Numbered from the stretch's first letter, positions 1-35,789 are shown. The stretch is DNA of 64,000 bases from a virus (IMGVR_UViG_3300037312_000757), one strand, 5' to 3'. Made by a program: numbers and translations. Notes: generated by a model from the sequence alone, not told the origin.

Positions 1-245
1 GAATCGCAACCACGATTGAAAACAGGCAAGTCTTCCATTCGTTTAATACTTGAAACATCAATAGTTTGATGATCCAAATTCCATGAAGCTGGGTTTGTTG
101 GATCATCTTGGCCAAATCCGTCGCAAGAAAAGTTGCAACCCCAGAAGCGAATCCATACCGTTGGGACGCCAGTGTATCGACCTTCACCCTGGAAGGTGTC
201 ACCGAAGATTTCGCTGTACTTGTATTTTTTGATATGTGTTGTCAT
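1..245 (-). CDS. queE: 7-carboxy-7-deazaguanine synthase (radical SAM QueE-like), N-terminal part; runs off the window
   Basis: Absent from the ORF track. Manual translation from the ATG at 245 gives MTTHIKKYKYSEIFGDTFQGEGRYTGVPTVWIRFWGCNFSC...GCD, the QueE EIF..QGEG..G.P..F(I)R..GCN..C signature. The ATG overlaps the upstream TAA. Confidence 0.88.
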   Translation of the reverse strand, partial: MTTHIKKYKYSEIFGDTFQGEGRYTGVPTVWIRFWGCNFSCDGFGQDDPTNPASWNLDHQTIDVSSIKRMEDLPVFNRGCD

Positions 246-418
246 TATTCTTCTCGTTTTGTCACCAGACGCTCTTGTTCAGTTGCAATCAACTTTGCCA
301 ATGCTTCGATTTCTTTTTGAAGTTCTTCGATGTATGCCGGATGAGCGCCATTTGCCAGAATAGCTTGCTTTTGAGCCAGAAGCGCCTGCCAATATTCCAA
401 TTCGTTTGATGAAGCCAT
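245..418 (-). CDS. small helical hypothetical protein
   Basis: ORF 245..451; likely start is the ATG at 418 (MASSNELEYW). Its stop overlaps the queE start. Confidence 0.6.
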   Translation of the reverse strand: MASSNELEYWQALLAQKQAILANGAHPAYIEELQKEIEALAKLIATEQERLVTKREE

Positions 419-437
419 TTGTGTTCCGAAGGCAAAA

Positions 438-460
438 TGCCAGTCTAGCAAAGACTGGCA
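438..460 (-). terminator. stem-loop downstream of dadA
   Basis: TGCCAGTCT-agcaa-AGACTGGCA, followed by TTTT on the minus strand. Confidence 0.6.
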
Positions 461-469
461 ACCTATGCA

Positions 470-1723
470 TTAAACACCGTTGGCTTTATTCCAAATGAGA
501 TCAGCAATCTCTTTCGATGTTGCCGCACCGAGTGTCCAGCCCAAATGCCCATGACCAGTATTGAACAACACTCGATCACTAGACACTGACTCACGAACAA
601 TGGGGTACATGGTGGGCGTCATAGGACGCAAACCAGCCCATGGCACAGCGTTCTTGACGCTTACATCGGGGAAACATGTACGGACCCAATCCAGCAGTGG
701 CTTGACGCGATCCTGACGGATATCGTAGTTCCAATCCGCCAGTTCTGCTGTACCTGCAACGCGCAGACGATCACCTAGACGCGATGACACAATCTTAGTT
801 GCGTCATCCAGAAGGCTGATCATTGGTGCAGCATTACGGCTAAAACTGCTTTCGAGTGGAACCGTGATGCTGTATCCCTTTACAGGATAGACATTGACTG
901 AGTCATCAACCATCTTTGCAAGCTCATTGCTATCTACACCAGCACAGATGATGACTTGCTCCAAGCGAGCATCAACATTCATCTCGCCATTAGATTCAGT
1001 GGTGACATCGACGAATTGACTATAGGGGCGAATGTCCGTAACAGTAGTATCATACTTGAATACGACGCCATAACGGTCTTTCAAGACTTGCGTCAATTCG
1101 ACACAAAACTTGTGAATGTCACCGCTTGCATCGTCTGGAGTGTACGTACCACCCAGAATAGTATTGCGAATCGGTGCGAGTGATGGTTCCAGCTTCACCA
1201 CTTCATCTGTTGATATCATGTATCGATCAACACCAGCAGCCTTGAAGTATTCGCATGACTTGATTGCAGCGTCATACGTTTTCCGGTCACGATAGAAGTG
1301 TAGGATACCTTGCTTGAGAAGGTCGAACTGAATGTCCTCTTCTTCAGCAATTTCATAATACAGTTCGCGAGCAGCGAGGCCTGTTTGGATGGTAAGGCCC
1401 GTGTATTTGTCGAAGTTAGACTGGCCCTTGATGGTGTTCAGCAAGAAGCCAGCAAGCCATTTGTACTTGGGCATGCTTGGGGTCAAGTCAAAGAGCAGCG
1501 GTGCATCCTTCTTGAACATCCACTTCATGCCCTTCTTGACCGTTGACCAGCTTGTCCAAACCTCTGCGTTACTGACACTAAGCTGCCCACCATTCGCATA
1601 CGAAGTCTGCATAGCAGAATAAGGATGCTTGTCGTAGACCACAACCGAGTAGCCAAGTCTAGCAAGGTAATAGGCGGTGGTAACACCCGTGATGCCAGCG
1701 CCGATGATTCCGATTGAACTCAT
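470..1723 (-). CDS. dadA: D-amino acid dehydrogenase (DadA/DAO family FAD oxidoreductase)
   Basis: GAGITG Rossmann motif, TSYANGGQLS, YPVKGYSIT, LRVAGTAE, WAGLRPMTP, NTGHGHLGWT. Confidence 0.9.
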   Translation of the reverse strand: MSSIGIIGAGITGVTTAYYLARLGYSVVVYDKHPYSAMQTSYANGGQLSVSNAEVWTSWSTVKKGMKWMFKKDAPLLFDLTPSMPKYKWLAGFLLNTIKGQSNFDKYTGLTIQTGLAARELYYEIAEEEDIQFDLLKQGILHFYRDRKTYDAAIKSCEYFKAAGVDRYMISTDEVVKLEPSLAPIRNTILGGTYTPDDASGDIHKFCVELTQVLKDRYGVVFKYDTTVTDIRPYSQFVDVTTESNGEMNVDARLEQVIICAGVDSNELAKMVDDSVNVYPVKGYSITVPLESSFSRNAAPMISLLDDATKIVSSRLGDRLRVAGTAELADWNYDIRQDRVKPLLDWVRTCFPDVSVKNAVPWAGLRPMTPTMYPIVRESVSSDRVLFNTGHGHLGWTLGAATSKEIADLIWNKANGV

Positions 1724-1745
1724 TTATAGTTATTTGGAAATGACA

Positions 1746-1770
1746 ATGCCAGTCTAAACTAGACTGGCAT
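1746..1770 (-). terminator. stem-loop upstream of dadA / downstream of the PRTase
   Basis: ATGCCAGTCTA-aac-TAGACTGGCAT. Confidence 0.55.
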
Positions 1771-1789
1771 CATTTGCTACTGTTTCAGA

Positions 1790-2278
1790 TCAGTATTCCC
1801 AGGGGAAACAAACCCAGACTGGTTTTTCAACTTTGTTGATTTCTTCACCAACATAGTCAGGCTCGAAGTGTCGTCCACCAAGGTTGTGAACCAAGACGGC
1901 ATATTTGACTTGAACAGCTGGTTGTTCAACGTCAGCTTCGAGTGGAGGCAGATTGCGCCGCAATTCATCATCGATCAAACGAAGGGTCTCACCCTCGTCG
2001 CAGATCTCATCAACGATGAGAACACGACGACCTTCGTTTACGAACTTCTGCACTTCAGCGAGTGATTCGATGTGTGCATGATCTCGAAGAGCAATGTGAA
2101 CTGTACGGAGCGGAACGTCAAAGTAATGGCTTGCATGTACAGCGGGAACAAGCCCGCCACGTGTAATGCCCACCACAACATCTGGCTTGAACTCGTCGTT
2201 AGCCATTTGACGGAAGATATTTGCCAGATGTTTCTGGTTCATATCTTCATATGTGATGTAATACTTATTTGTTGACAT
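1790..2278 (-). CDS. type I purine phosphoribosyltransferase (Gpt/Hpt-like)
   Basis: VVGITRGGLVPA, PRPP-binding loop VLIVDEICDEGET, C-terminal WVCFPWE; start taken as MSTNKYY (2278). Confidence 0.85.
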   Translation of the reverse strand: MSTNKYYITYEDMNQKHLANIFRQMANDEFKPDVVVGITRGGLVPAVHASHYFDVPLRTVHIALRDHAHIESLAEVQKFVNEGRRVLIVDEICDEGETLRLIDDELRRNLPPLEADVEQPAVQVKYAVLVHNLGGRHFEPDYVGEEINKVEKPVWVCFPWEY

Positions 2279-2945
2279 TGTTCGCAATCGCCAGGAATTC
2301 ACTACGAACGAGTGCGTCAGTACGGAACTTACCGCCCAGGTAGCTGGTTACAGTGGATGAGCCTGTGTCTTCAACACCACGTGACTTCACGCAGTAGTGT
2401 TGAGCGTTGATAACAACAGCAACGTCATCAGTTTCAAGGATAAACTGCAGAGCAGCAGCGATCTGGTTTGTCAGTCGCTCTTGAATTTGTGGACGCTTTG
2501 CGAAGTATTCAACAACACGATTAATCTTGCTCAGGCCAAGAACCTTCTTGTTTGGCAGATATGCAACAGTAGCCAGACCGTCGATGATAACGAAGTGATG
2601 TTCACAGTTCGATTGAACTGAAACACCCTTTTCTACGACCATTTCGTCGTAACCCATCTTGTTTTCAACGGCTGTACACTTTGGAAAGTTTTCAGGATCA
2701 AGACCCCAGAAGATTTCGCTGCAATACATCTTAGCAACACGGAGTGGCGTTTCAATCAGACTGTCGTCAGTCAGATCAAGACCCAGTGTTTCCATGATTG
2801 CTTTGAAGTGCTTTTCGATCTTGCTGACCTTCTGCTTGACGGTCAGTGTGTTTGGCACTGTTGGAGTTTCGAGACCTTGTGAAACCAGGTGATTGTGAAC
2901 GGCGACGCCCAGAGCGGGATCGCACTTGTTTTTATTGAATGACAT
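2265..2945 (-). CDS. folE: GTP cyclohydrolase I
   Basis: ETPLRVAKMY, SNCEHHF, GLSKINRVV, RPQIQERLT, HYCVKSRGV. Confidence 0.97.
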   Translation of the reverse strand: MSFNKNKCDPALGVAVHNHLVSQGLETPTVPNTLTVKQKVSKIEKHFKAIMETLGLDLTDDSLIETPLRVAKMYCSEIFWGLDPENFPKCTAVENKMGYDEMVVEKGVSVQSNCEHHFVIIDGLATVAYLPNKKVLGLSKINRVVEYFAKRPQIQERLTNQIAAALQFILETDDVAVVINAQHYCVKSRGVEDTGSSTVTSYLGGKFRTDALVRSEFLAIANNVNK

Positions 2946-3027
2946 TGCAACCTCTTATTGCATTATTGTTGTTCTACTACGGCCTCTTACCGTAGAGGAT
3001 GGAGAAGAATTGCTCTTGCTCCACCCA

Positions 3028-3064
3028 TATTTAGTATTTTAAACCAGCTCTTTGAAGCTGTCAA
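3028..3064 (-). promoter_or_regulatory. tandem sigma70-like and late (TAAATA) promoter upstream of folE
   Basis: Minus strand reads TTGACA-N17-TAAAAT (3064-3036), then TAAATA (3033-3028). Confidence 0.7.
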
Positions 3065-3067
3065 AAT

Positions 3068-4183
3068 TTAAATGCCCAGCAACGCGTTATACATCTTATA
3101 CGCCTTGGCATATTCGTGTAAACGTGTCTTGTTGAACTGGTTAATTTGACTCTTGATGGAATCGTAATGCGTCATCGAGAAGCGAATCTTCTTAACCAAT
3201 TCTTCCTTATGTGCCAAGTAAGCATCAAAGCTTTCTGTCCATTCTGATGGATACAGGAAGTTGTTGAAGCCTTCAAAGATCTCAGTATAGCTGAGTCGAT
3301 TTGGCACCAACGAAATGTTCATGGTCATTGGTGCTTCCATGCATGAGGAAATACCAAATGTTTCCTGCAAGTTTGCGCTGAATGTCAACTTACTTTGGCA
3401 AAGCAATGCGTGATACTCAGCCTTCGTCAAACGTTGCTCTTGGCAAGTCACGAATTCGTATTCTGGCAGGGATGCCTTCAGATCTAGGAAGATGTCATGC
3501 TGCTTTTCAGGAGCAATGCGATGCGGGAAGAGGATCATGTCCTTCTTGTTGGCACACGCACCAGAATCTTGAAATGCTTGCAAGTGTGCAATCAGACCTT
3601 CGTGTGGTTGACCTGACAGCATCATTCGATTAAGAATACCTGAAAGGTTGGCATCAGGATCCACATAGTCACCAAATACACCATCGAAGAACAGTTGTTG
3701 ATGGAATACGGTTGCGTAAATGTTCTTGTCGAGTGCCCAGAAAATTGCTTCTTCTGTGCTACGTGCCCAACGCTTGTCTTGAATCAAACGGCCAAGAAAG
3801 TCTTGTGGGTCGTACTGACCAGCATGCCAAATACCATAAAGTTCAGCCTTGATACCAAGCAAGTCAAGCATGTACTTCGTTTGAAGGATGACTGGATTCC
3901 AGGCATCAGTGAACAGGAACTTGTCACCATCCTTGATTTCACCTTCTGAGATCAGCTTTGCAATCTTGATTGACTGCTCACTCTTCCATTTGTTTGTACC
4001 AGCAAAGTTAATGAACGCGCCCGGGGTTGTCAGCTGTTCTTTGTCGTCACCGACAATGTTCACCACGTCAACGTCGACGCTGTAGTCTTCTACGTGCTTG
4101 CGAAGGGCGGTGGGAATACCTTCCAGCCACTCGCAAGTGTAACGGTTAGGAAGGGACTCAAGTGAAACTACGTAAATTGTCAT
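3068..4183 (-). CDS. GT-B fold glycosyltransferase-like protein
   Basis: ILFPHRIAPEK and SANLQETFGIS (GT4-like E-x-F-G donor-binding motif); WHAGQYDPQDFLGR. Confidence 0.7.
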   Translation of the reverse strand: MTIYVVSLESLPNRYTCEWLEGIPTALRKHVEDYSVDVDVVNIVGDDKEQLTTPGAFINFAGTNKWKSEQSIKIAKLISEGEIKDGDKFLFTDAWNPVILQTKYMLDLLGIKAELYGIWHAGQYDPQDFLGRLIQDKRWARSTEEAIFWALDKNIYATVFHQQLFFDGVFGDYVDPDANLSGILNRMMLSGQPHEGLIAHLQAFQDSGACANKKDMILFPHRIAPEKQHDIFLDLKASLPEYEFVTCQEQRLTKAEYHALLCQSKLTFSANLQETFGISSCMEAPMTMNISLVPNRLSYTEIFEGFNNFLYPSEWTESFDAYLAHKEELVKKIRFSMTHYDSIKSQINQFNKTRLHEYAKAYKMYNALLGI

Positions 4184-4590
4184 TTGTTTACACTGTTATA
4201 TGAATGATCTTCAATTGGATACCAGCCAATTTTGTTTAATGCCTCGCGGACTTTAGCAGTAACGTAGCCATATTCAATATTTGCTCGGTAATTGCTACAG
4301 TACCAATCCATGTAATCTTCGCTGGTGCCATGGAACTCATTTCTGAGATCTGCAATTACACCGCCCATCGCTCTAAAGCTGGCGCCCCAAGTTCTATGTT
4401 CGAAGTCTTCAGTCAACGCAAACTCAACCTGTTCGGCGGTTGTTGGCAAAGAAGCATCGTATTTCTTGTACCAATCAACGTTGGCAAACGCAGTCCATAG
4501 TTCACAGCAGAAGTCAGCATCAGCCATAAGTTGAATGAACTCAGGATACTTCTTTACGTCTTCTGTAAAGTCTATGAACTGCTCAGTCAT
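4180..4590 (-). CDS. phage hypothetical protein
   Basis: Start MTEQFIDF (4590) just after the upstream stop; WGASFRAMGGVIADLR...DYMDWYCS; stop overlaps the next start. Confidence 0.7.
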   Translation of the reverse strand: MTEQFIDFTEDVKKYPEFIQLMADADFCCELWTAFANVDWYKKYDASLPTTAEQVEFALTEDFEHRTWGASFRAMGGVIADLRNEFHGTSEDYMDWYCSNYRANIEYGYVTAKVREALNKIGWYPIEDHSYNSVNK

Positions 4591-4592
4591 GA

Positions 4593-5042
4593 TTAGTCCA
4601 GATAAAGACCGCGAGCGTTTGATGATTGTGGGCCGAGATTCACAGGAGCGGCAACTTGGATGACAGGATAAGTCATCAAAGCACCATTCTCGCCATCTTC
4701 GCTGACTTCGATTTGCACCCAACGACCAGGATAACGGTTATTGATTTGACCATACAAATCATCAGACATCATCTCACATGACTTGTAGTCGAGTTGAAGA
4801 ATAGCATCCTTGCCATATAGATTTTCCAGCCAACGCTTGAACTGGATGAATTCGATATCACGATCATTGTGTGTCACTTCAATAGTAACACGGAAATGAA
4901 ACATATGGCGATGTGGATGGCCCAGGAAGCTCACATCATATTCATCGCCGGTCGCCAGGTTAGGATCAGTAAGAGCAGCCGGATACTTGTGAACACCTTC
5001 CTTTTGGAAGGCAACGAAGATCAGTTTGTTAGGTTGTGACAT
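4593..5042 (-). CDS. QueD/PTPS-like T-fold protein with LxxxHRHxF motif (possible DpdL-type CDG decarboxylase)
   Basis: FLGHPHRHMFHF, DRDIEF, SCEM, EVSEDGENGA; lies in the folE/queE cluster. Confidence 0.75.
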   Translation of the reverse strand: MSQPNKLIFVAFQKEGVHKYPAALTDPNLATGDEYDVSFLGHPHRHMFHFRVTIEVTHNDRDIEFIQFKRWLENLYGKDAILQLDYKSCEMMSDDLYGQINNRYPGRWVQIEVSEDGENGALMTYPVIQVAAPVNLGPQSSNARGLYLD

Positions 5043-5448
5043 AAATTGTTCCGTCGTATTTGATGTTGACTTCGAAGAGTGCGGCTTCAGATAGTTCGTA
5101 ACTTAGGTTAGCTAACTTGAAATCTACGATTTCAGGACGTAGTAACTGCACCGTAAGAACTTCCTGATTTGCTTCATTAAACAACGTCACTTCGACGCTC
5201 ACGCCATCTTCAATGTCATGTACTGTTTTGGTTTCCATGATAGCGGTTAACGCCTTGATTACCAAATTGTCAGCATCAGCACGAATATAGAACGTTGCCA
5301 CCTCACCTTTCATAAGAGAAAACCCATCAATACTACAAAGTGACTGGGCCAAAATGTCCATATCAACACCTTGTAATATTGCGGTGAGACTTTTGAAGTT
5401 TGCGGTGAAGCGATAACTCATCACTGGCCGCGGGATATTTGCGCTCAT
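5029..5448 (-). CDS. hypothetical protein, possible tail-tube (gp19-like) paralogue
   Basis: P.MSYRF N-terminus and L.Y..SE...F.V.I.YD C-terminus. Confidence 0.45.
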   Translation of the reverse strand: MSANIPRPVMSYRFTANFKSLTAILQGVDMDILAQSLCSIDGFSLMKGEVATFYIRADADNLVIKALTAIMETKTVHDIEDGVSVEVTLFNEANQEVLTVQLLRPEIVDFKLANLSYELSEAALFEVNIKYDGTIYVTT

Positions 5449-5780
5449 TCAAGAAACTCTGTGAACCATGGCATTGCCAGGCTCGGATTCTTTGCATCTG
5501 GTTTGGCAGTCTTCAGCGACTCATACAAAGTGTCCAAGTCTTGCTCCCAGACGTTGAAGATTTGAATTGAGCTACGTTGCGTGGTTACTGAACGACGACC
5601 ATAAAACAGGCGCTTCTGGCCCAGTCGTTGAGTGAGGCGCGCCACATGCTGAGCAATTTGGTCTTCAGTGGCATTGTTGCCTCGAAGCAATTCGACCGCT
5701 TGTTCGATGTTCTCTTGTGATAGTGGCACCGCATTGGCAATCTCTTCGCCAAAAAGTGCTTTGAATTCGGTTAATGTCAT
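5445..5780 (-). CDS. hypothetical protein
   Basis: Start MTLTEF at 5780 forms an ATGA overlap with the upstream stop. Confidence 0.7.
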   Translation of the reverse strand: MTLTEFKALFGEEIANAVPLSQENIEQAVELLRGNNATEDQIAQHVARLTQRLGQKRLFYGRRSVTTQRSSIQIFNVWEQDLDTLYESLKTAKPDAKNPSLAMPWFTEFLE

Positions 5781-6214
5781 TCTGGCTTTATTATATTTTC
5801 TAACTTCTTGTAATTGAAATCTACGTAGAAACAACTGCGATAAGACTCGCCATATCCTACAGCGCTGATCTGAATACCATCGATCTTCACACCATGTAAC
5901 CGACGGATGCATGGCGAATCGCCGGGTAATGCGTTTAGATATTCGATGTCAATGATGATATCGTGGCCATTTTTAAATTCTTCGATCAATTGTTGCAATG
6001 CCACAACTACATGGCCGTCAACATCATCCTGAATGCGCATAGTGGCTTTGTGGCTATCTTCATTTGAAGCCGAGAACAAAGCTAACCCTTCTATGCGAAT
6101 AATGTTGGGTGTCAACCTATCATATTGGTTAGTTAGTTGGCCAACTACCGTCTTTATCTTCGCTTCGAATCGATCAACACTTCTTGCACGTGGCGCTTTT
6201 GGATGCTCTTTCAT
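5777..6214 (-). CDS. hypothetical protein, possible tail-tube (gp19-like) paralogue
   Basis: ATGA-coupled start at 6214; DRF, IQDD, IDIEYL, L.G..I...YG.S...F.V.F.Y pattern. Confidence 0.45.
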   Translation of the reverse strand: MKEHPKAPRARSVDRFEAKIKTVVGQLTNQYDRLTPNIIRIEGLALFSASNEDSHKATMRIQDDVDGHVVVALQQLIEEFKNGHDIIIDIEYLNALPGDSPCIRRLHGVKIDGIQISAVGYGESYRSCFYVDFNYKKLENIIKPE

Positions 6215-6777
6215 GCTGTTCCTTGACTGTATGACGTCCATAGTTTCAGATCGAAATCAGCAGGCGTCATGTTGTTTTTAGCAGCCAGCTTCAGAAACTC
6301 TTTCTCCAGCTCAAGGTATTGCTTGTCACCTGGTGTTTGCTTTGGCGCCGCAAATCCCTCTGAACGAAGGTATTTGAGGATATGAACGTCAAGCACCGCA
6401 ATGTTCTGGTTGGGACGGGAATGAAGAAGGAAGAAACGTGCAGTCTTGTTACCGATGCCCTTGACCTTCTTGATTTCGTCTAATGTGGCGGTTTTCAGAT
6501 CAAGCTTCAAGCTTTGCTCGAAACCGGCAGCAAGACGATTGTATTGGCCAAGTTTGCTTTCCTTGAGTTTGTCGAGGAGAACGCCGTTGTCAACCATATC
6601 CTGAATGATTTCAAATGGCGTGTCACCATTACCAGCACTCAGAAATGCGTCAAGAAACTTTGCCTGTACCTTGGCTGTTTTGCCCGCAACTGTTTGGCAG
6701 AAAAGAAAGAAAAGTTGCAATTCACCGTCGGCGCGGTCGAACTTAGTTACGTCTGTGGGATCAACTAAGAAGTTCAT
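6211..6777 (-). CDS. HhH DNA glycosylase, 8-oxoguanine glycosylase (Ogg2)-like
   Basis: HhH motif VKGIGNKTARFFL, VLDVHILKYL, Y.ELEK.F, DLKLW; start MNFLVDP (6777). Confidence 0.75.
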   Translation of the reverse strand: MNFLVDPTDVTKFDRADGELQLFFLFCQTVAGKTAKVQAKFLDAFLSAGNGDTPFEIIQDMVDNGVLLDKLKESKLGQYNRLAAGFEQSLKLDLKTATLDEIKKVKGIGNKTARFFLLHSRPNQNIAVLDVHILKYLRSEGFAAPKQTPGDKQYLELEKEFLKLAAKNNMTPADFDLKLWTSYSQGTA

Positions 6778-6790
6778 ATTATTCTCTAAT

Positions 6791-6827
6791 AGTTGCCATA
6801 TTCTACATATGGCAACTGACTGTGCAA
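6791..6827 (-). promoter_or_regulatory. sigma70-like promoter with a palindrome over the -10 box
   Basis: Minus strand TTGCAC-N16-TAGAAT; AGTTGCCATAT-tctac-ATATGGCAACT at 6791-6817. Confidence 0.5.
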
Positions 6828-6837
6828 TATTTTTCGA

Positions 6838-6845
6838 TATAAATA
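6838..6845 (+). promoter_or_regulatory. T4-type late promoter TATAAATA
   Basis: Exact T4 late consensus about 30 nt upstream of the flavodoxin-like gene. Confidence 0.6.
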
Positions 6846-6873
6846 TCGGCATATAACTTTTTACGGGTACAGT

Positions 6874-7506
6874 ATGAAAGCATTGATTTTAAACGGTTCA
6901 CTTCGCAAGGAAGAGGCCCAGTCAAATACGACAGCTTTGAGTCTCATGCTTGCTGACGAGATGAAAAAGTACGATGTCGAAACAGAACATGTATATTTGC
7001 GTGACGTAGACTTATCCCCAGGCGCCAAGCTAAAACCTCAAGAACCAGACCAAAGTCCTGAGCTCTTCAAGAAAGTCCTGGAAACTGATATTCTCGTTTT
7101 TGCTACACCAATTTGGTGGTGTAGCCATTCAAGCTTGATCCAGGCTGTTATCGAGCGTCTGTCATGGGTTGACGACTACTATATCGACAAGGACTTCAGT
7201 CCTCTTTACGGTAAAGTGTTTGGTTGTATCGTTAATGGTGCTGGTGATGGCGTACAGCACATCAACGCATCACTCTTCAACTGGGCATCGCAGCTAGGCT
7301 TCATAATTCCCCCTGAGGCTGGCTTAAACTACCTTGGCGAGGACGGTGAGAAGAACATCAGAGCTAGTAAGACCACAATGATGAAGCTCTCCAAGACTGC
7401 TAGAAACCTGGCATTCTTTGCCGACGTTTCCACTACCCAAAAGCTTGGCTTAGAAGTGCAAACGGAAAAGACAACACCATACACAGGTGTTAAGGTAAGC
7501 GAATAA
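6874..7506 (+). CDS. NAD(P)H-dependent FMN reductase / flavodoxin-like protein
   Basis: LILNGSLR, SNT, DILVFATPIWW, LYGKVFG. Confidence 0.85.
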   Translation: MKALILNGSLRKEEAQSNTTALSLMLADEMKKYDVETEHVYLRDVDLSPGAKLKPQEPDQSPELFKKVLETDILVFATPIWWCSHSSLIQAVIERLSWVDDYYIDKDFSPLYGKVFGCIVNGAGDGVQHINASLFNWASQLGFIIPPEAGLNYLGEDGEKNIRASKTTMMKLSKTARNLAFFADVSTTQKLGLEVQTEKTTPYTGVKVSE

Positions 7507-7507
7507 C

Positions 7508-7533
7508 AAAAGGCTCCCAATTGGGAGCCTTTT
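7508..7533. terminator. bidirectional intrinsic terminator
   Basis: AAAAGGCTCCCAA-TTGGGAGCCTTTT between convergent genes. Confidence 0.85.
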
Positions 7534-7550
7534 CTACAGCAATTGTCTAA

Positions 7551-8303
7551 TTAACGACGACGTGCTGGAAGAATATAGTTGTACTCTGCGTGATCAGTTG
7601 TTACAGCAACCAGCAATGCGCCCTTGCTTGTGATACCAACCTTGTAGTCGTTACCGTCAGCTGACTTCAGGATCGACAGGAACTGGGAAATTGGCCACAA
7701 CAGTTCGCCCTTCAGCTCACCTGTAATTGTTTCTTCGAATACCATGCTTGCACGGTGTGTTGCTGAACCTTCTTCACCGATTGCGAACACCAGTGAACCA
7801 TCCTTCGTCTTCACTGAGAAGAACTGGTCAAACTGTGAATACAGACCGGCCAGACCTTGGAATTCCTGGATCTTTGCCTTTGCTGGTGTGAATTCAACGT
7901 CCCACTTAATGTCAGCAACGAGTGGTTGATCACCAACCAGTTGTGCGCTCATCAGGCGGAAGTTTGCACCCAGGCCCTTTGCATCGCGGAATTCGAATTC
8001 TTCTGGTGTTGACTTACCATTCATGTCACGACGTGTAACGTTGAACGTGGCGTCATCAGTCTTGTATGACGCAAAGTTCAGCAGACCGTTCAGGAGTTGC
8101 AGGTTAGCAACACCAAATTCACCGACCAGATCAGCTTGAGCTTCTTTTGTCTTTGCCTTGATAATCACTGACTTGTCAGCGTCAACTGCTTCGATGCGTG
8201 TTTCATCAGCAGTACCAGTAACCTTGATCTGCTCGACGAAACCCAGACCACCAATCTTCTTCACGATGTCTTGAATGACATTCTTAGTATTTGTGTTGCT
8301 CAT
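7551..8303 (-). CDS. putative DNA polymerase sliding clamp (gp45-like)
   Basis: 250 aa, alternating beta/alpha pattern, C-terminal YNYILPA, position downstream of the DNA polymerase. Confidence 0.6.
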   Translation of the reverse strand: MSNTNTKNVIQDIVKKIGGLGFVEQIKVTGTADETRIEAVDADKSVIIKAKTKEAQADLVGEFGVANLQLLNGLLNFASYKTDDATFNVTRRDMNGKSTPEEFEFRDAKGLGANFRLMSAQLVGDQPLVADIKWDVEFTPAKAKIQEFQGLAGLYSQFDQFFSVKTKDGSLVFAIGEEGSATHRASMVFEETITGELKGELLWPISQFLSILKSADGNDYKVGITSKGALLVAVTTDHAEYNYILPARRR

Positions 8304-8374
8304 TGTTTGGAGTGTCTCCGTTTGTTTATTTTCAGTATTATGCAGCTTGCCAGCTTTTGATACAAATTGTTTTG

Positions 8375-8689
8375 TTAATTTCCGTATGCCAACTTAAAGA
8401 TGGCTGCGGTTTCTTTATCATTAAAGAACCACGAACATGGCCCACCAAAGATGTTGGTGCAATAATATGCACCATCTTGGGCATTTTCGAATACCCATTC
8501 TTCCATTTCTTCAGTATGACCGGTGTCTGTTTTTACTTCATAAAAACATTCGCATTGCCGCAAATAAGCAGTGCAAACGTTCATGCTTTTCATTTCAACC
8601 ATCACTCGGGTGAAATAGTCTCGAACCATTTCACCCTCATGTGGCTTAATTGAAGGACCAATGTCCTTCAGTCCAGCCATTGTCCACAT
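8375..8689 (-). CDS. hypothetical protein
   Basis: ORF immediately after the polymerase; F....A..FKL C-terminal motif common in small phage proteins. Confidence 0.6.
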   Translation of the reverse strand: MWTMAGLKDIGPSIKPHEGEMVRDYFTRVMVEMKSMNVCTAYLRQCECFYEVKTDTGHTEEMEEWVFENAQDGAYYCTNIFGGPCSWFFNDKETAAIFKLAYGN

Positions 8690-8692
8690 ATA

Positions 8693-11680
8693 TCACCAAG
8701 TAAAGAGATCGTTTGACAAATCGTCGTTTGCTTGTGCCAAGTCCCAGTTCAACACTCCCAAGAGGTTCTTGAGCTTCGCATCAATGATGGTGTCTTCCAT
8801 CGTTGTGTGATCGAACGGCAAATCCTTAAACCACTGTGGCAAATGTGGCTCGTCGATTGGATACGCGACTGCGTTCATACCAAGAGGGTTAGGCTTCAGC
8901 TTACAAACGATAGTCTTCGCACCGTCTGTGATACGCATTGAGAACATGTCATTGTGCATCTTGCAAAGCTTGTTCCAGTTCAAACCAGCACGAGCCTGTC
9001 CTGGCATGTTGACCTTGCTCTTAGTGCCAACCTTCAACTTGCGGAAGTCACCACTCACATCAGCTGCTTCTGCTTCTCGTTCCGTGTAATCAGTCAAGCC
9101 GTTAACACGCTTTGGTGTTCCCTTTTCCCAACCTGGTCTGTCGCGAAATTCACGGCGGAACTTGCGGATCATATCGAAGATCTGATCCTGTGTTGAGCCA
9201 GTCAGCAACTTCATCAGCACATCTTCCAAGAAGTCTTGCATGAACTGAGGGGTATCCGAACGCTTCAGGTCAAGACCCATCACCTTCAGCTTACCAGGTT
9301 CACCATCCACGTCGTAGCGCTGATTATCCTTGTCATACATCAGTACCGCATACTTCTTCTTCTTGATGAAGAGACCCTTCGAAGCAACCAGTTCTCGACC
9401 GGCAGCAATAATACTGCCACGTTCCAAACCAGTGTTGAATGCTTTGTTCATGAATTCAGGAAAGCTTGCATTCACTTCTTCACCAATACCATCGTACAGC
9501 TTGATGATATTGTCACGTGTGAACTCGAAGTCTGCAAATTGTGGATCGTTTGCCCATACCTTCTTCGCTGAGAAGTAAGATGAGTCCGTATCCGCGTAAA
9601 TGATCGCTTCGCCCTTATAGTCATACTCACCAGTAATGATCTCATTGATCTTACTGTTCATGTGACGTGCAATGCTTCGACCTGTCAGCGTAACTGACTG
9701 TCCAACGCGCTTGTCGTAGAACTTCATTGATTCATTCAACAAAGCGCCGTACAGTGAGTTCAGCAAAATCTTACGTGCTTGTTGACGCTGATTCCAGAAC
9801 GCCTTCAGGAATTTTGCGTTGTCCTTGTCAACCGCATAAATGTTGTCGCCTTCCAAACGGAAGTTGTATGACACCATGATTTCAGCCACAAGCGGTGCAT
9901 TCTTCGCACGCAGAGCCTTAATGAACTTACCAACATCCACTTCACTCTTCTGTGCTTTTGCCAATTCAGCTTCGAGTTGGGCAATAAACGCGCTTGGATC
10001 TGCGCCATCAAACAGCTTAGTGATTGTTTCATGGTCATCAGTTACGTGAGCATATGTTGTTTCACGCGCCTGCATTTCCTTACGTTGTGAGTACCAGTTC
10101 GCAAGCAGCGACGGAATGATACCAGCCACGTCTGTGCGGAAAATAGTACCGTTTGCCGTGATACACAATGGACGATCTTCATGGAAAATGTAGTCATTGA
10201 GTTCATCTGCACGGAAAGTACGAGTGGTACCATCTTCAAAGTCAACAACGATCTGATTCTTGTTACGGGCCATCACGTGTTCATACTCAAGAGTACAGAA
10301 CACACCTTCCCACAAGTCTGACTTTGCAACACCATCAGCAATACGCTGCTGAATCATTGCTTCAGTCTCCATAGGACGAATATGGCCGATCAGAGTCTCA
10401 GGACTCATGTTCAATGCACGCAGCGTGGACGGATACAGTGAGTTAATGTCACAGCAACCAATTTCCTCTTGAAGACCAGTCTTTGGCTTAGCCACGTAAG
10501 CACCAACCGCGTTCTTCTTTACGTTGCCACCACCACCTTCTTCGTCATCCTCATCATCGTAGTCGTCTTCATCTTCTTCCTCGACCACTTCTGCCTTACG
10601 ATCTGGCACAACCATGCCACGATCATGTGCTTCGTTGATGATAGACTGCTCGATCAGCGCCACTGAACCCATAGTAGTTTTCAGCAGAACGGTGTTGGTA
10701 TGAGCAATCTGGTTCGCAAGTTCGATGAATCGCTTCTTCTTGTCGATCTTGACTAGCAGCATCGTATCCTGACGGTTATACTCGATGAACTTGTGGAAGT
10801 CTTTCTTGTACAAATCGTCAAGTGTGCCCTCATATGGCACCTTATTTTCCTTCACTTCAATCTCACCCACGAAGTCCAGTCGGTATGAGTGCAACTGTTG
10901 TGGGTTGTGCTTCTGGTACAGTTCCAAGTAGTCAAGGTGAGCGCGCCCAACCAGGTCGTATGTTACCGACTTCTTCTTGAACTTGATGTACTCACGGCGC
11001 TTTGGAGCCTGGTTCCACAAGCAGAAGCGTCGTGCTTCATCTTTACCGATCACACGAATGATGCGGTTAACCAGGTATGGAATATCGAAGCCTGTTGAGT
11101 TCCAACCAGACAAAACGTCTGAGTCTTCGATGATGTCCAGGAAGCTTTTCAGCAACGCTGTTTCGTCATCGAACAGGAATGTGTCTTCAAACTTCTCTGT
11201 GACCTTCTCCGCCTCATCCAATGTCATGGTTGGAGGACATAACACCAGAGTGATCAGCTTATTGATGTGGCTGAGATAACAAGTAATAGCTGTTACCTCG
11301 TTGAACGGGTCTTCGGTAGGTGCAAAACCACGTGTTGGGTGGAATGCGACCTCAATGTCGAAGAAGCACAAGTTCAATGCAGGAGCTTCAACACCACGGT
11401 AAGTCTGTTCCAAGCAGCGGAACACCGGGTTAATATCGCTCTCAAACAGTCGCTTCGTACGTTGCACCAACATCTTCTCACGCATGAACGCTTTGTGCGA
11501 ACCTGTGGAGAACATGTTGCAGATGTCACCGTAAATGCTTTTGTATTTGCCTCGTGGATCCGGGTAGTAGAACAGATAATTGGCTGGGTGATCAGTGTAC
11601 ACCCGATTGCCATTTTCATCTCGCCCAACTACATGGATCACATCTTTTTCTTTATTGTAAATCGCGTCGATGTAGCTCAT
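8693..11680 (-). CDS. family B DNA polymerase (gp43-like) with 3'-5' exonuclease
   Basis: Exo motifs FFDIEV, GWNSTGFDIPY, YNRQD; polymerase motifs DINSLYPS, KILLNSLYG, YADTDS, KKKYA. Confidence 0.97.
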   Translation of the reverse strand: MSYIDAIYNKEKDVIHVVGRDENGNRVYTDHPANYLFYYPDPRGKYKSIYGDICNMFSTGSHKAFMREKMLVQRTKRLFESDINPVFRCLEQTYRGVEAPALNLCFFDIEVAFHPTRGFAPTEDPFNEVTAITCYLSHINKLITLVLCPPTMTLDEAEKVTEKFEDTFLFDDETALLKSFLDIIEDSDVLSGWNSTGFDIPYLVNRIIRVIGKDEARRFCLWNQAPKRREYIKFKKKSVTYDLVGRAHLDYLELYQKHNPQQLHSYRLDFVGEIEVKENKVPYEGTLDDLYKKDFHKFIEYNRQDTMLLVKIDKKKRFIELANQIAHTNTVLLKTTMGSVALIEQSIINEAHDRGMVVPDRKAEVVEEEDEDDYDDEDDEEGGGGNVKKNAVGAYVAKPKTGLQEEIGCCDINSLYPSTLRALNMSPETLIGHIRPMETEAMIQQRIADGVAKSDLWEGVFCTLEYEHVMARNKNQIVVDFEDGTTRTFRADELNDYIFHEDRPLCITANGTIFRTDVAGIIPSLLANWYSQRKEMQARETTYAHVTDDHETITKLFDGADPSAFIAQLEAELAKAQKSEVDVGKFIKALRAKNAPLVAEIMVSYNFRLEGDNIYAVDKDNAKFLKAFWNQRQQARKILLNSLYGALLNESMKFYDKRVGQSVTLTGRSIARHMNSKINEIITGEYDYKGEAIIYADTDSSYFSAKKVWANDPQFADFEFTRDNIIKLYDGIGEEVNASFPEFMNKAFNTGLERGSIIAAGRELVASKGLFIKKKKYAVLMYDKDNQRYDVDGEPGKLKVMGLDLKRSDTPQFMQDFLEDVLMKLLTGSTQDQIFDMIRKFRREFRDRPGWEKGTPKRVNGLTDYTEREAEAADVSGDFRKLKVGTKSKVNMPGQARAGLNWNKLCKMHNDMFSMRITDGAKTIVCKLKPNPLGMNAVAYPIDEPHLPQWFKDLPFDHTTMEDTIIDAKLKNLLGVLNWDLAQANDDLSNDLFTW

Positions 11681-12391: not shown

Positions 12392-13423
12392 TTAGTTCTT
12401 GAAGATGCCTTTCCGCACTCCCTGATCTACCAATTGTTGAGAAGCCAAATTCTTACTCTTCGCTTCCACTTCAATATCCATCCAACTAGCATGAGAAAGT
12501 GCCCAATCATTAGCTGCTATGTTCCAGCAACCATCACTATGAGCCCTAATGTCCCTGATGGTTTTCTTCTGATCCCGTAATGCCTTAAAGTCAGGCAACT
12601 TGTCTTCGGGATATCCCACCATGAGACTATTCGATGACACCGAATAATGTCCAAGAGGACGTACACCACGCCAACTATCCTTCACGTATTGGATACGCGG
12701 ATCGTCCGGAGTGATATACTGTCCCTCACTGTACACCCATTCGTGGTGTATATCGAGTACCAGTGCAATATGTTCTGCCAGAGGCTCAACATCACTCAGT
12801 CCAAAGCCAATTTCATCATTCTCGATTGTCAGGAGGTTGCGGGCGTCTTCACTGAGACTGCGAAACCCAGAGAGAAGTCCTTGAATTCCGCCAGCCTTGC
12901 TACCAACGTGAATGTTGATAGCCGCACCATGAGGGTGCCATCCGCCCGTATAACCCATCAGACGCATCATTTCAACATGGTACTCAAGCTCCTCGATTGC
13001 TCGAGCTTGAGTAATCTCGCTAACTGAATTCAGTACACAATACTGACCAGGGTGAAATGAGAGTCTGACTCCTGCTTTTCGTGCAGCTTCCCCAATTTCT
13101 GCAAACTTGGCTTCCACTACACTACGAATAACCGGTTCATCATAAGCCCAGCGTGCCACTTCATGCGTATATGCAGGAAGCAGCTCTGAGCCTAAGCGAA
13201 GCAGTCGTTGATGCCTGGGTAGCGTTCCTACCCAGTTAACTAGATTCTTGGTGGAATCCAAATTGTGATTCACCAGACCCAGCAGTTTGTCAATCAGCTT
13301 GGAATCGTTGAGTCGTGACAGGCAAGCGATGGTTGTGGTCTTGTGGTTCATGAGTTCTTCAGCGTCATTGTCACTTGAAGGGCTAACCCATTTGCAGCAA
13401 AAACCAATCTTACCGTCAGTCAT
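12392..13423 (-). CDS. uvsE: UV DNA damage endonuclease (UvsE/UVDE)
   Basis: IGFCC, LRLGSELLP, RLSFHPGQY.VL, NIHVG, LTIENDE, LVLDIHH, AHSD, EVEAK.K. Confidence 0.93.
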   Translation of the reverse strand: MTDGKIGFCCKWVSPSSDNDAEELMNHKTTTIACLSRLNDSKLIDKLLGLVNHNLDSTKNLVNWVGTLPRHQRLLRLGSELLPAYTHEVARWAYDEPVIRSVVEAKFAEIGEAARKAGVRLSFHPGQYCVLNSVSEITQARAIEELEYHVEMMRLMGYTGGWHPHGAAINIHVGSKAGGIQGLLSGFRSLSEDARNLLTIENDEIGFGLSDVEPLAEHIALVLDIHHEWVYSEGQYITPDDPRIQYVKDSWRGVRPLGHYSVSSNSLMVGYPEDKLPDFKALRDQKKTIRDIRAHSDGCWNIAANDWALSHASWMDIEVEAKSKNLASQQLVDQGVRKGIFKN

Positions 13424-14494: not shown

Positions 14495-15874
14495 TTACAG
14501 CTTTTCACCAGGCTGCGTGCCGCGGAAGCCCTTCACACGTGGGAACCGCAGTGACCAGATGTCATTGCTGTTCTGTTCCTTCGTGAAACAGTCAGCTTTC
14601 ACTTCGAGAATGAAACCCATTTTGTTCATGCGATCACGCCAGACTTCATCTCGATCTTCATCTGACCAGCCCGTACCAACATTGCTGATCACGTGTCGCC
14701 CGCCTGTTTCTTCGCAGGGCAGTGTCTCGCAGATTACCGCGCCCAGCTTGCCGACGTTCTTGCCAGTTCCTTCTTCGAAGCCAATGATCGTCATCGAAAG
14801 TTCGATGAATGGCTTGATCTTCAGCCACGACGCAGTGCGCTTCGTTTCGTACGGAGCTTCAGGGTCCTTGACCATGATGCCTTCGTAACCAGCTTTCACG
14901 GTTTCGGCGTTGAATTCCTTGAACTGCTTCTGGCCTTCAGGGGTATTGAGATCGACCGTGATCTTCGGGATCACGTACACTGATCCTTGCGTATGCTGTT
15001 GGAACGCACCCATGAAACTACTCAGGACCGTATGGCGATCCTTCTGCTTCATCGAACACTTGCCCTTCTTGAAGTCTGCCAGTGGCACAATGTCGAACAG
15101 TGCCAACTTTGAGCTGTCTGACTTCACTTCCTTCGTGTTGACCATCTTCATAAGGTCTTGGAAGGATTTTGCCACGATCTCGCCGTCAAGCACCATACTC
15201 GTCGGTAGTAGATCGAGGAAGGGTTCCAGTGCTTTCGTGATGTGAGGGAAGTTTGTGTTCACCTTCCCGTTACGAGTGTACTGGGTGACCGTGCGCTCAT
15301 CCTTGTCGATGATCGTCAGCAAGCGAACGCCGTCCAGCTTGGGGTCGAGCATCTTCTTGCCCGACACCTTCTTGACGTTTGCCGGATCATTACCGTCCTT
15401 CGCCAGCTGGCAGCCGAAAACAGGCACGATGTAGTCAAGAGCCGTTTTGTCGCTCTTCGACAGCTTCTCGAGCATCTTGTTGACCGTCGAGTCGCTGATG
15501 CCAGCACGCAAGTCCTTCAGCAGCACGCGACGGTAGAATTCGTTCCACACGTCGAAATCGCTCTTGAGCGCTGCTTCGTTAAGCGCATCACGCGCCGCGT
15601 TGCCGCTCAGTTCGCGAACACCGTTCTTCTTTTGCAGTTTGCCGGCCAGCGCCTTGAAATCTGCAAACTTAAACGAACCAGGTTGCCCGTCATCTTCGGC
15701 GAGTTCAGGCACCTTCTTGACGCCAAAGCTGATGAGGATGTCATACGCGAGCTGACAGCCCACGAAAAAGTCCCGTTCACCGTTCATCCAGGCGTCTACG
15801 ATGAGCTGCTCTTTCTCGGTGCGGGAGGAGGTTGCCGCGAGATTTCGCAGCAAGGTAACGGTTTGTTGTGACAT
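14495..15874 (-). CDS. ATP-dependent DNA ligase
   Basis: Motif I PKLDGVR, VLDGEI, LFD, EGIMVK, WLKIKP, SLRFP. Confidence 0.96.
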   Translation of the reverse strand: MSQQTVTLLRNLAATSSRTEKEQLIVDAWMNGERDFFVGCQLAYDILISFGVKKVPELAEDDGQPGSFKFADFKALAGKLQKKNGVRELSGNAARDALNEAALKSDFDVWNEFYRRVLLKDLRAGISDSTVNKMLEKLSKSDKTALDYIVPVFGCQLAKDGNDPANVKKVSGKKMLDPKLDGVRLLTIIDKDERTVTQYTRNGKVNTNFPHITKALEPFLDLLPTSMVLDGEIVAKSFQDLMKMVNTKEVKSDSSKLALFDIVPLADFKKGKCSMKQKDRHTVLSSFMGAFQQHTQGSVYVIPKITVDLNTPEGQKQFKEFNAETVKAGYEGIMVKDPEAPYETKRTASWLKIKPFIELSMTIIGFEEGTGKNVGKLGAVICETLPCEETGGRHVISNVGTGWSDEDRDEVWRDRMNKMGFILEVKADCFTKEQNSNDIWSLRFPRVKGFRGTQPGEKL

Positions 15875-34874: not shown

Positions 34875-35789
34875 TCAATAGTCGAGGTTTTGGATTTCAG
34901 CTGCGAGTGCTGAATTGACAGAATCAGGCCAATGCATGTTCAGCTCAACGAAAAGGTCCCCACGGACCTTCGTGTTCATTACTGACATGCCGTGCCCTGG
35001 GATACGAATGCGCGTGCCTGGCTTTGTTCCAGGACGAATGGTGATGTCGAATTCGGTGTCATCGATCGTACCAATTCGAACTTGCGATCCGCCGAGAAGA
35101 TCCAGCACGTGAATGTCTTTCTTCAGAACCAAGTTCTGAGCTTCACGTATGAATTCTTTGTGTTCGGTGACTGTAATGTGAACGTAAAGGTCGCCAGCAG
35201 GACGGCGAGTGTTTCGACGTGAACCAGCTGCCGCACAGCGAATCTTCTTACCAGTGTCGATACCAGCAGGAATGTTCAACAACACTGAGCGACGTTCACC
35301 GTCGATGGTGTAGGTGACAGTGGTCTGTTTACCCTTGAACGCTTCTTCTAGGGTGATTTGCATGTCGAAGTATGCGTGCTCGTTTGCTCGTTCGTATTCG
35401 TAATCATAGTAGCTTTGCCTACCTTGATTCGTCTTACGCATCCATTCATCTGCATCATAGGACCAGTTGGCGTTTCGGTCAGCTTCCTTGAAGTCTTTGA
35501 AGATGTCGTCCCAGTTATAGCGCCGTCCCGTCGAGTATTGGGAGTCGTTGTCATTGAACTTAGTGCTGTACTTGGAACGACGCTTACGGTCATAGACCGC
35601 GCGCTTTTCTGTCGTTTCGACAGTCTCGAACGCTTCTTTCACACGTTTGAAATTCTTCTCAGCTTCCTCGATGTTATCGGGGTTCCGATCCGGGTGCCAT
35701 TTCATGGCAAGCTTGCGATACGCCTTCTTGATCTCGTCGTCGTTCGCAGTCTCGGCTACTCCTAGAATTTCATACGCACTTTCGTTCAT
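34875..35789 (-). CDS. DnaJ/CbpA-type co-chaperone (no zinc finger)
   Basis: J-domain KKAYRKLAMKWHPDRN; C-terminal ITLEEAFKG, IPAG, GDLYV, GDLFV. Confidence 0.92.
   Translation of the reverse strand: MNESAYEILGVAETANDDEIKKAYRKLAMKWHPDRNPDNIEEAEKNFKRVKEAFETVETTEKRAVYDRKRRSKYSTKFNDNDSQYSTGRRYNWDDIFKDFKEADRNANWSYDADEWMRKTNQGRQSYYDYEYERANEHAYFDMQITLEEAFKGKQTTVTYTIDGERRSVLLNIPAGIDTGKKIRCAAAGSRRNTRRPAGDLYVHITVTEHKEFIREAQNLVLKKDIHVLDLLGGSQVRIGTIDDTEFDITIRPGTKPGTRIRIPGHGMSVMNTKVRGDLFVELNMHWPDSVNSALAAEIQNLDY

Follow-up and report, generated by a model that had tools for sequence, protein, structure and literature searches.

In phage phiST, 2'-deoxy-7-deazaguanine (dDG) stands in place of all dG; the pathway proposed for this replacement includes DpdL, a QueD paralogue defined by the motif LxxxHRHxF and put forward as the decarboxylase that takes 7-carboxy-7-deazaguanine (CDG) toward dDG (Cui, Hutinet et al., 2023; PMC10516641). 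The DpdL system of phiST and ACP17 is a described counterpart of the locus studied here, which occupies the first 6,852 positions of IMGVR_UViG_3300037312_000757, a stretch of viral DNA of 64,000 nucleotides that we call the window. This locus encodes FolE, a QueE-like protein and DpdL together with a glycosyltransferase (GT) of the GT-B fold and a 6-oxopurine-type phosphoribosyltransferase (PRTase). The system is the known DpdL-type 7-deazaguanine DNA modification, in a common and undescribed variant that includes the GT and the PRTase, and the region is probably part of such a module lying among the replication genes of a jumbo phage.

Described systems and their likeness to the locus

The window resembles the phiST/ACP17 system in having FolE, QueE and a DpdL with the LxxxHRHxF motif; QueC was found in none of four relatives searched, the closest large relative included, and a transglycosylase of the tRNA-guanine transglycosylase (TGT) fold and QueD are present in relatives. 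In ACP17 the GT and DpdL homologues lie side by side. Unlike the window, phiST has no GT in its cluster, and the main text of PMC10516641 names neither a glycosyltransferase nor a PRTase, both terms having zero occurrences. The window's cluster also differs in being without dpdA and queD, and the DpdA-like proteins of GT-bearing phages are about 500 aa long, as against 259-264 aa in phiST and immuto. Our literature search found no paper that names a glycosyltransferase or a PRTase as part of a DpdL/DpdA system.

The Pseudomonas jumbo phage PA5oct (Wroclawvirus) carries at gp316-gp322 a DpdA-like gene, a GT and a DpdL (40% and 57% identical to those of the window, respectively), an epimerase fragment, a PRTase and QueE. 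It differs from the window in that its DpdA-like gene adjoins the GT, and no Ogg2-type glycosylase or dehydrogenase of the kind found here was seen in its cluster. In a study that does not identify the modified base, PA5oct DNA is reported to be resistant to restriction enzymes whose sites contain G and to be a target of nucleases that sense modified G (PMC12191111).

Two more remote systems offer partial parallels. The alpha- and beta-glucosyltransferases of phage T4, which act on 5-hydroxymethylcytosine, are likewise phage GT-B enzymes encoded with a base-modification pathway, and we propose a similar logic here, in which a sugar placed on top of a modified base would allow escape from host enzymes that target the modification. 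The T4 enzymes nevertheless belong to another family, the best matches of the window GT being GT4 and GT5 enzymes, and the partner base of the putative DNA-acting GT here would be a purine analogue with no known hydroxyl. The second parallel is bacterial. TubE, of the tubercidin cluster, is a CDG-specific PRTase encoded beside homologues of GTP cyclohydrolase I (GCH I), QueD and QueE and a decarboxylase, with no QueC (PMC6112128), and the same source describes ToyH of the toyocamycin cluster as a purine-type PRTase in similar company. These clusters differ from the locus in serving bacterial secondary metabolism that makes free nucleosides, and they were compared with it by description only; the window PRTase is closest to archaeal purine PRTases and Gpt.

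The core genes and their conserved linkage

Open reading frame (ORF) analysis of the window shows that positions 1-6852 form a single co-oriented gene run on the minus strand, to which all coordinates below refer unless otherwise stated, directly downstream of a family-B DNA polymerase (PolB, 8693-11680) and a clamp-like gene (7551-8303). In order of transcription it comprises the Ogg2-type glycosylase, three small ORFs, the QueD paralogue, a 136-aa ORF, the 371-aa GT, FolE, the PRTase, a dehydrogenase and the start of QueE. From the glycosylase to the 371-aa gene, the starts and stops of neighbouring genes overlap by 4-14 bases, and the same gene boundaries are called on an identical 4-kb metagenome contig. 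Megablast of positions 1-8000 against cultured phages gave no match. We assigned families by Pfam, NCBIfam, PHROG and PDB sequence searches, and observed in this way every gene that the original prediction had named (queE, folE, a QueD-like gene, a PRTase, a GT-B enzyme and an Ogg2-like gene), on the minus strand and mostly overlapping by a few bases; the D-amino-acid dehydrogenase (470-1723) and four small ORFs between Ogg2 and GT had been missed.

The QueD paralogue (4593-5042), a T-fold protein, carries LGHPHRHMF at residues 40-48 where QueD has CxxxHGH, and its His18, Glu90 and Glu115 are invariant across the DpdL and QueD sequences aligned. It matches PHROG 17812 (4e-34) and, by tblastn, phiST gp040 (34% identity, 7e-10), ACP17 ASD50405 (57%, 1e-38) and Phosso (68%). 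Its motif, its homology to the phiST and ACP17 proteins and the definition in PMC10516641 all bear out the earlier identification of this protein as a member of the DpdL family. Of the context of FolE, QueD, QueE and DpdA without QueC in which DpdL is expected, FolE and QueE are in the window and QueD and DpdA were not found in its 64 kb; the closest relative has both of the latter elsewhere and no QueC. FolE itself (GCH I, 2265-2945) is assigned by Pfam (1.5e-61) and by an NCBIfam equivalog (319 bits).

QueE runs off the start of the window, which holds its N-terminal 81 aa (3-245), recognised from the translation and from relatives. The fragment shows a start with FQGEG and C-x3-C, and is 86-91% identical to 339-aa QueE-like proteins of two related loci (L006 and L008). 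One full-length relative (P0241, L008:14809-15828) has a GGE motif and the cysteine spacing C-x3-C-x38-C, which is not the usual motif of radical S-adenosylmethionine (SAM) enzymes, and it scores weakly against the NCBIfam QueE models (28-41 bits, far under the cut-offs, e.g., 41 bits against 206). Homologues are annotated as QueE in Phosso, PA5oct and ACP17.

The 371-aa protein (3068-4183) had no match in Pfam, NCBIfam or PHROG searches, and its assignment as a GT4-like, phage-specific GT-B glycosyltransferase comes from an AlphaFold2 model and Foldseek. The model, built on 43 homologues, has a predicted local distance difference test score (pLDDT) of 92 and a predicted template modelling score (pTM) of 0.90, and the fold that we observed in it consists of two Rossmann-like domains, with a Foldseek probability of 1.00 to both GT4 and GT5 structures. 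Its best structural matches in the PDB are glycogen synthase, BshA, MshA, GlgM, LmbT and PimB', among which BshA and MshA are UDP-GlcNAc enzymes. In BFVD the nearest neighbour is the ACP17 homologue (TM 0.86), itself weakly matched by Glycos_transf_1, and DNA alpha-glucosyltransferases of the T4 type are distant matches at rank 41-43. Residues H221, R222, E226 and K227 (HR..PEK), E274 and E283 are invariant among the 43 sequences, and we take them to correspond to the donor-binding motifs (an Arg/Lys pair and Glu...Glu) in the C-terminal domain of GT4 enzymes; the spacing between the two glutamates is one residue longer than in the classical EX7E. As the protein adjoins DpdL, it was suspected of being a DpdA3, a candidate that was rejected on its GT-B fold, its lack of similarity to phiST gp042 and the weak Glycos_transf_1 matches of its ACP17 homologue.

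The PRTase gene is called at 1790-2302, with a probable true start at 2278, and belongs to the Gpt/archaeal purine PRTase type (PF00156, 1e-15). Its PDB matches are the Pyrococcus purine PRTase 1vdm (1e-11), E. coli XGPRT (1e-5) and Sulfolobus GpT-1 and GpT-2, and a profile of the family matches 1vdm at 8e-27. The phosphoribosyl pyrophosphate (PRPP) loop reads VDEICDEGET, in which D87, D91, G93 and T95 are invariant in the family, in keeping with the acidic pair and D-x-G-x-T of the type I fold, and a C-terminal Trp is also invariant. The score against the NCBIfam xanthine PRTase model lies far below its cut-off (53 bits against 138), and we therefore leave the protein without an equivalog assignment. 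Among cultured phages, detectable homologues occur in the phiST group, the immuto_2-6A group and BUCT-ZZ01, and also in PA5oct; the gene lies between QueE and FolE in immuto_2-6A and adjoins QueE in BUCT-ZZ01. Complete replacement of G has been reported for both phiST and immuto_2-6A (PMC10516641).

The GT family is very large: a search of metagenome proteins gave about 7,000 matches, and IMG/VR has more than 600 contigs with a member. The identical protein was found only on the 4-kb metagenome contig, an exact 41-mer had no match among metagenome contigs, and the best relative on a viral contig is 81% identical. Profiles made for this analysis were applied to 83 GT-bearing IMG/VR loci and to as much as 10 kb of flanking sequence in either direction. 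DpdL was found in 79 of them, a large DpdA-like protein in 65, the PRTase in 63, FolE and PolB in 56 each, and QueE in 52, and many loci scored negative for a family have a short flank on the expected side, as is the case for three of the four DpdL-negative loci. The order PolB, DpdA-like, DpdL, GT, PRTase/FolE, QueE is conserved. The same linkage is observed in cultured phages: the neighbourhood in Phosso comprises polymerase, clamp, glycosylase, DpdL, GT, FolE and QueE; that in PA5oct a 540-aa protein, GT, DpdL, the epimerase fragment, PRTase and QueE; and that in ACP17 QueD, FolE, two unknowns, GT, DpdL and QueE, and synteny with these three phages follows the order PolB, clamp, (DpdA), DpdL, GT, FolE, PRTase and QueE. 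All 17 cultured-phage records with a GT homologue (at least 24% identity and at least 73% query coverage from the N-terminal end) also have DpdL. The counts and conserved order across the 83 loci indicate that the GT and the PRTase are part of the standard make-up of a widespread module. A linkage of these two genes to the que genes, which the original prediction had supposed, thus holds in relatives, and for the PRTase also in cultured phages, where its gene is found within the deazaguanine clusters of PA5oct, BUCT-ZZ01 and immuto_2-6A or close to them; the prediction's description of them as unusual partners does not fit a module as common as this one.

Clustering all ORFs of the 83 loci also revealed recurrent and variable neighbours that could tailor a sugar. 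These are an NAD-dependent epimerase/dehydratase (26 loci), a GFO/IDH/MocA oxidoreductase (18 loci), a zinc alcohol dehydrogenase-like protein (ADH_N; 18 loci), a HIT-domain protein (34 loci) and, in a single locus, a PIG-L deacetylase beside the GT. In the distant relative L010, DpdL and the GT are separated by a radical SAM/SPASM gene and an LmbE-like deacetylase of the PIG-L type (7464-8180 and 8610-9239). A PIG-L deacetylase following a GT4 enzyme recalls the pairs MshA/MshB and BshA/BshB.

A possible pathway and its alternatives

Searches of the whole 64-kb window by tblastn, tblastx and Pfam found no TGT-fold dpdA, no queC and no canonical queD, in agreement with what had been seen at its first positions. 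A large DpdA-like gene is nevertheless present within 10 kb of the GT in 65 of the 83 related loci, and adjoins it in PA5oct, ACP17 and most metagenomic relatives. The family is about 420-540 aa long and keeps the motifs DSGGFQ, LQG, HFLG and FDCASP. We observed its fold in a model of a relative's copy, that of the 290-kb contig G001, whose top matches are solely tRNA-guanine transglycosylases (probability 1.00, E ~5e-8). G001 is the closest large relative of the window (PolB 91% and DpdL 86% identical), and its DpdA-like gene lies at 240 kb (E 5e-67), separated from the cluster by about 200 kb, with QueD at 217 kb, about 175 kb away. A distant DpdA-like gene occurs in three of four large relatives (G001, the complete 462-kb G006 and Phosso), and a distant QueD above the Pfam cut-off is present in all five large relatives searched. 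The absence of dpdA from the window is most simply an effect of window size. It is no evidence for a pre-replicative route, given the DpdA-like genes in 65 of 83 clusters and elsewhere in three of four large relatives: because those large relatives, the closest included, encode a distant DpdA-like protein, a missing dpdA is no argument for a route free of DpdA.

From these families a pathway can be proposed. FolE would convert GTP to dihydroneopterin triphosphate, a QueD encoded outside the window would form 6-carboxytetrahydropterin (CPH4), and QueE would yield CDG, which DpdL, by the published proposal, would convert to 7-deazaguanine. A TGT-fold DpdA-like transglycosylase, probably also encoded outside the window as it is in the closest relative, would then swap this base for guanine in phage DNA, and the GT4-like GT would add a sugar to the deazaguanine-derived base or to a precursor of it. 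The PRTase may recycle the released guanine to GMP and GTP, or it may make a deazapurine nucleotide as TubE does. The enzyme fits either role. In the first, salvage to GMP of the one guanine released at each modified site would pull the exchange forward and regenerate GTP for FolE; the second is nucleotide formation. The route from PRTase to nucleotide suggested in the original prediction is accordingly possible, with TubE as its precedent.

Our tentative interpretation is that a very common type of phage carries a sugar-bearing derivative of 7-deazaguanine, formed by means of DpdL, the large DpdA-like protein and a GT4-like GT whose sugar varies with the lineage, and that the PRTase may feed a TubE-like nucleotide branch. 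The evidence combined makes the addition of a sugar to a deazaguanine-derived base or precursor plausible. The same holds for the earlier suggestion of a hypermodification beyond those described, which gains from the sugar-tailoring enzymes of related clusters and is unproven as regards the sugar-decorated base itself; our literature search found no paper describing a glycosylated 7-deazaguanine. Hydroxymethyl-pyrimidine was considered as another acceptor, and is unlikely because two complete GT-bearing relatives have no gene of the thymidylate-synthase/hydroxymethylase family (PF00303).

Several observations weigh against this interpretation. The acceptor is unexplained, as 7-deazaguanine offers no obvious hydroxyl for an O-glycosyltransferase, and what ties the GT to the module is its neighbourhood alone. 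The decarboxylase activity of DpdL is no more than a proposal, and E. coli provided with the DpdL and DpdA of phiST and ACP17 formed no dDG (PMC10516641). ORF clustering found in the window itself none of the sugar-tailoring genes seen in relatives. That this phage has dpdA and queD is an extrapolation from relatives, neither being in the 64-kb window, and G005, a relative that is 90% complete, yielded no match to the DpdA-like family. The large DpdA-like proteins also resemble the short DpdA3 proteins of phiST and immuto only weakly (28% probability and E 6e-4 by hhalign), with the motifs aligned, and for this reason we call them DpdA-like and assign no subfamily.

The failure of DpdL and DpdA to yield dDG in E. 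coli also speaks for a rival reading, in which the modification is pre-replicative. A TubE-like PRTase would then join CDG or 7-deazaguanine to PRPP, DpdL would act on the nucleotide, host or phage kinases and ribonucleotide reductase would produce deaza-dGTP for incorporation by the phage polymerase, and the GT would follow. The gene logic resembles that of the TubE cluster, with GCH I, QueD, QueE and a decarboxylase and no QueC (PMC6112128), a likeness drawn from descriptions of the clusters. The PRTase is conserved in 63 of the 83 loci, and it lies in or near the clusters of relatives of the phages with complete G replacement, in the immuto_2-6A and phiST groups (PMC10516641), where an NTP pyrophosphohydrolase and a kinase-like gene are present in the clusters as well. 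On this account, however, a TGT-fold DpdA-like gene that is conserved in the cluster and has both catalytic Asp motifs would have no role, the PRTase retains two residues that ordinary 6-oxopurine enzymes typically have, the PRPP-loop Asp and the C-terminal Trp, and Pfam searches of positions 1-8700 found neither a dGTP-removing enzyme nor a nucleotide kinase in the cluster. We consider a pre-replicative route unlikely.

The missing hydroxyl bears as well on whether the GT acts on the base at all. The DNA could carry plain 7-deazaguanine, as in phiST, while the GT acts on a pterin intermediate, a protein or a small-molecule cofactor. BshA, MshA and LmbT, among its best structural relatives, act on small molecules, and the T4-type DNA alpha-glucosyltransferases are no nearer than the ranks in BFVD given above. 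Cyanobacterial pteridine glycosyltransferases glycosylate pterins, and FolE with a PTPS/QueD-like protein also starts pterin pathways. Against an activity away from the base stand the presence of the GT near DpdL in 79 of 83 loci, and near the DpdA-like gene in most, as well as the presence of DpdL in all 17 cultured-phage records with a GT homologue. The family is phage-borne, the gene lies in the replication block, and variable sugar-tailoring genes are the pattern of arms races in DNA hypermodification. An acceptor other than the base is thus rather improbable, and a GT that decorates the deazaguanine-derived base or its precursor is preferred.

The last alternative concerns the gene at the head of the run (6211-6777), an Ogg2-type helix-hairpin-helix DNA glycosylase/apurinic-apyrimidinic lyase (PF22175, 4e-9; PDB 9o00, 7e-11; PHROG 11575, 7e-62). 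Relatives of 188-192 aa make 6777 its likely start, as originally predicted. It passes the Pfam Ogg-HhH cut-off (36.6 bits against 27), falls below that of NCBIfam NF002305 (N-glycosylase/DNA lyase; 8e-14, 51.6 bits against 183), and is, by its sequence, a divergent phage branch represented by PHROG 11575. In the alignment with PDB 9o00, its GIGNKTA falls on the catalytic Lys, a position confirmed by the K-to-S mutant entry 9o02, and its LDVH on the catalytic Asp, which in Ogg2-type enzymes follows the Lys by about 18 residues. In Phosso, a different protein, annotated as a glycosylase and with no Pfam match, occupies the same position beside DpdL.

Were this glycosylase a working part of the module, it might remove unmodified G from the DNA of host or phage, or stand in for DpdA in lineages whose dpdA has moved out of the cluster. 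Its gene is the first of the translationally coupled run, its catalytic Lys and Asp are intact, the five loci that have it (L005, L007, L008, L050 and L095) are all without a DpdA-like gene within 10 kb, the 90%-complete relative that gave no DpdA-like match also has it, and the Phosso protein at the same position may be counted on the same side. Yet those five loci are all that carry it among the 83, and three of four large relatives with Ogg2 still have a distant DpdA-like gene. Its close homologues (46-48% identical) are found in 30 records of phiCbK-like Caulobacter phages and in an Erythrobacter phage, beside ligase or polymerase genes, and in our cultured-phage searches none of these carriers appeared among the DpdL or GT matches. 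A part in the modification is therefore very doubtful, and the idea that the enzyme distinguishes modified from unmodified G found no comparative support, the gene being rare among GT loci and common in phages without DpdL or GT matches. We take it to be a repair gene belonging to the replication block, with a weak link to the module.

Other genes in and around the run

The gene at 470-1723 encodes a D-amino-acid dehydrogenase-like FAD enzyme of 417 aa (Pfam DAO, 2e-65; 529 bits with the NCBIfam equivalog model NF009074, whose cut-off is 494). It was found at 2 of the 83 loci and is present only in the window, in L005 (98.6% identical) and in L008, being absent in L006, L007 and L020. As its identity to the L005 copy exceeds the 73-93% of the neighbouring genes, and given its absence from those three loci, it appears to have been exchanged recently, and it looks like an accessory, lineage-specific insertion and not a core member. 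A scan of genome contigs for its origin gave no relative. Directly after the gene lies a terminator-like hairpin (438-460), a 9-bp stem followed by a T run that is a consensus match only. A promoter-like site (TTGACA, 17 nt, TAAAAT; 3036-3064) between the GT and FolE matches 11 of 12 consensus positions, and is no more than a lead because the region does not contain more such sites in total than shuffled sequence does.

Four small ORFs complete the run. The 136-aa protein (4180-4590), translationally coupled to the GT and lineage-specific, is 57-80% identical in L005-L008; it has no Pfam, NCBIfam or PHROG match, and its Atlas model is of low confidence. A 139-aa protein (5029-5448) has a predicted fold similar to that of tail tubes (Atlas structure search, TM ~0.8 to tail-tube/T4 gp19-like clusters), a lead from a fold model, and probably stands outside the pathway. 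Its 145-aa paralogue (5777-6214) falls in the same BLAST cluster, and the two are separated by a 111-aa ORF (5445-5780), called on the identical 4-kb metagenome contig and with no family match in Pfam or PHROG. Two paralogues with a tail-tube-like predicted fold thus sit inside a replication block, between Ogg2 and DpdL. We infer that this block carries Ogg2, the dehydrogenase and the small ORFs as passengers particular to the lineage.

The sole gene on the opposite strand in this part of the window encodes an NADPH-dependent FMN reductase (flavodoxin-like, Pfam 3e-19; 6874-7506, plus strand), which is kept in the closest relative at 86% identity. By way of speculation, it might donate electrons to the radical SAM protein QueE. 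The remainder of the window encodes a UvdE UV endonuclease (12392-13423), an ATP-dependent DNA ligase (14495-15874), a full DnaJ (34875-35789) and many unknown, probably structural proteins. Elsewhere among the loci, a family of about 173 aa with no Pfam match lies between the DpdA-like gene and DpdL in 66 of 83 cases (e.g., L046:7226-7747; ACP17 ASD50402), and is absent in the window's lineage. In L020 and L021 (79% GT identity), three opposite-strand DUF723 genes are inserted within and beside the cluster; they may be homing-endonuclease-like.

Implications for phages with the module

To our knowledge, every natural 7-deazaguanine base known from DNA has a small group at C7, and a sugar is found on none of them. 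A GT tied so closely to DpdL across hundreds of viral contigs leads us to predict a new class of hypermodified purines. If true, a sugar-bearing deazaguanine would be a purine counterpart of glucosyl-hydroxymethylcytosine, and we found no paper that describes such a counterpart. Host glycosylases that attack 7-deazaguanine phages have recently been described (bioRxiv 10.1101/2025.10.29.685425), and they would provide a selective reason for further decoration of the base. The conserved PRTase in turn reopens the question of whether complete replacement of G is post-replicative, pre-replicative, or driven by removal of the released guanine. Cultured carriers of the GT exist in PA5oct, ACP17, Phosso and BUCT-ZZ01. 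The module bears on the escape of phages from restriction enzymes and from the recently described host glycosylases and END nucleases that detect modified G, on the behaviour of PA5oct-type phages toward such host defences, and on new DNA-modifying enzymes for biotechnology.

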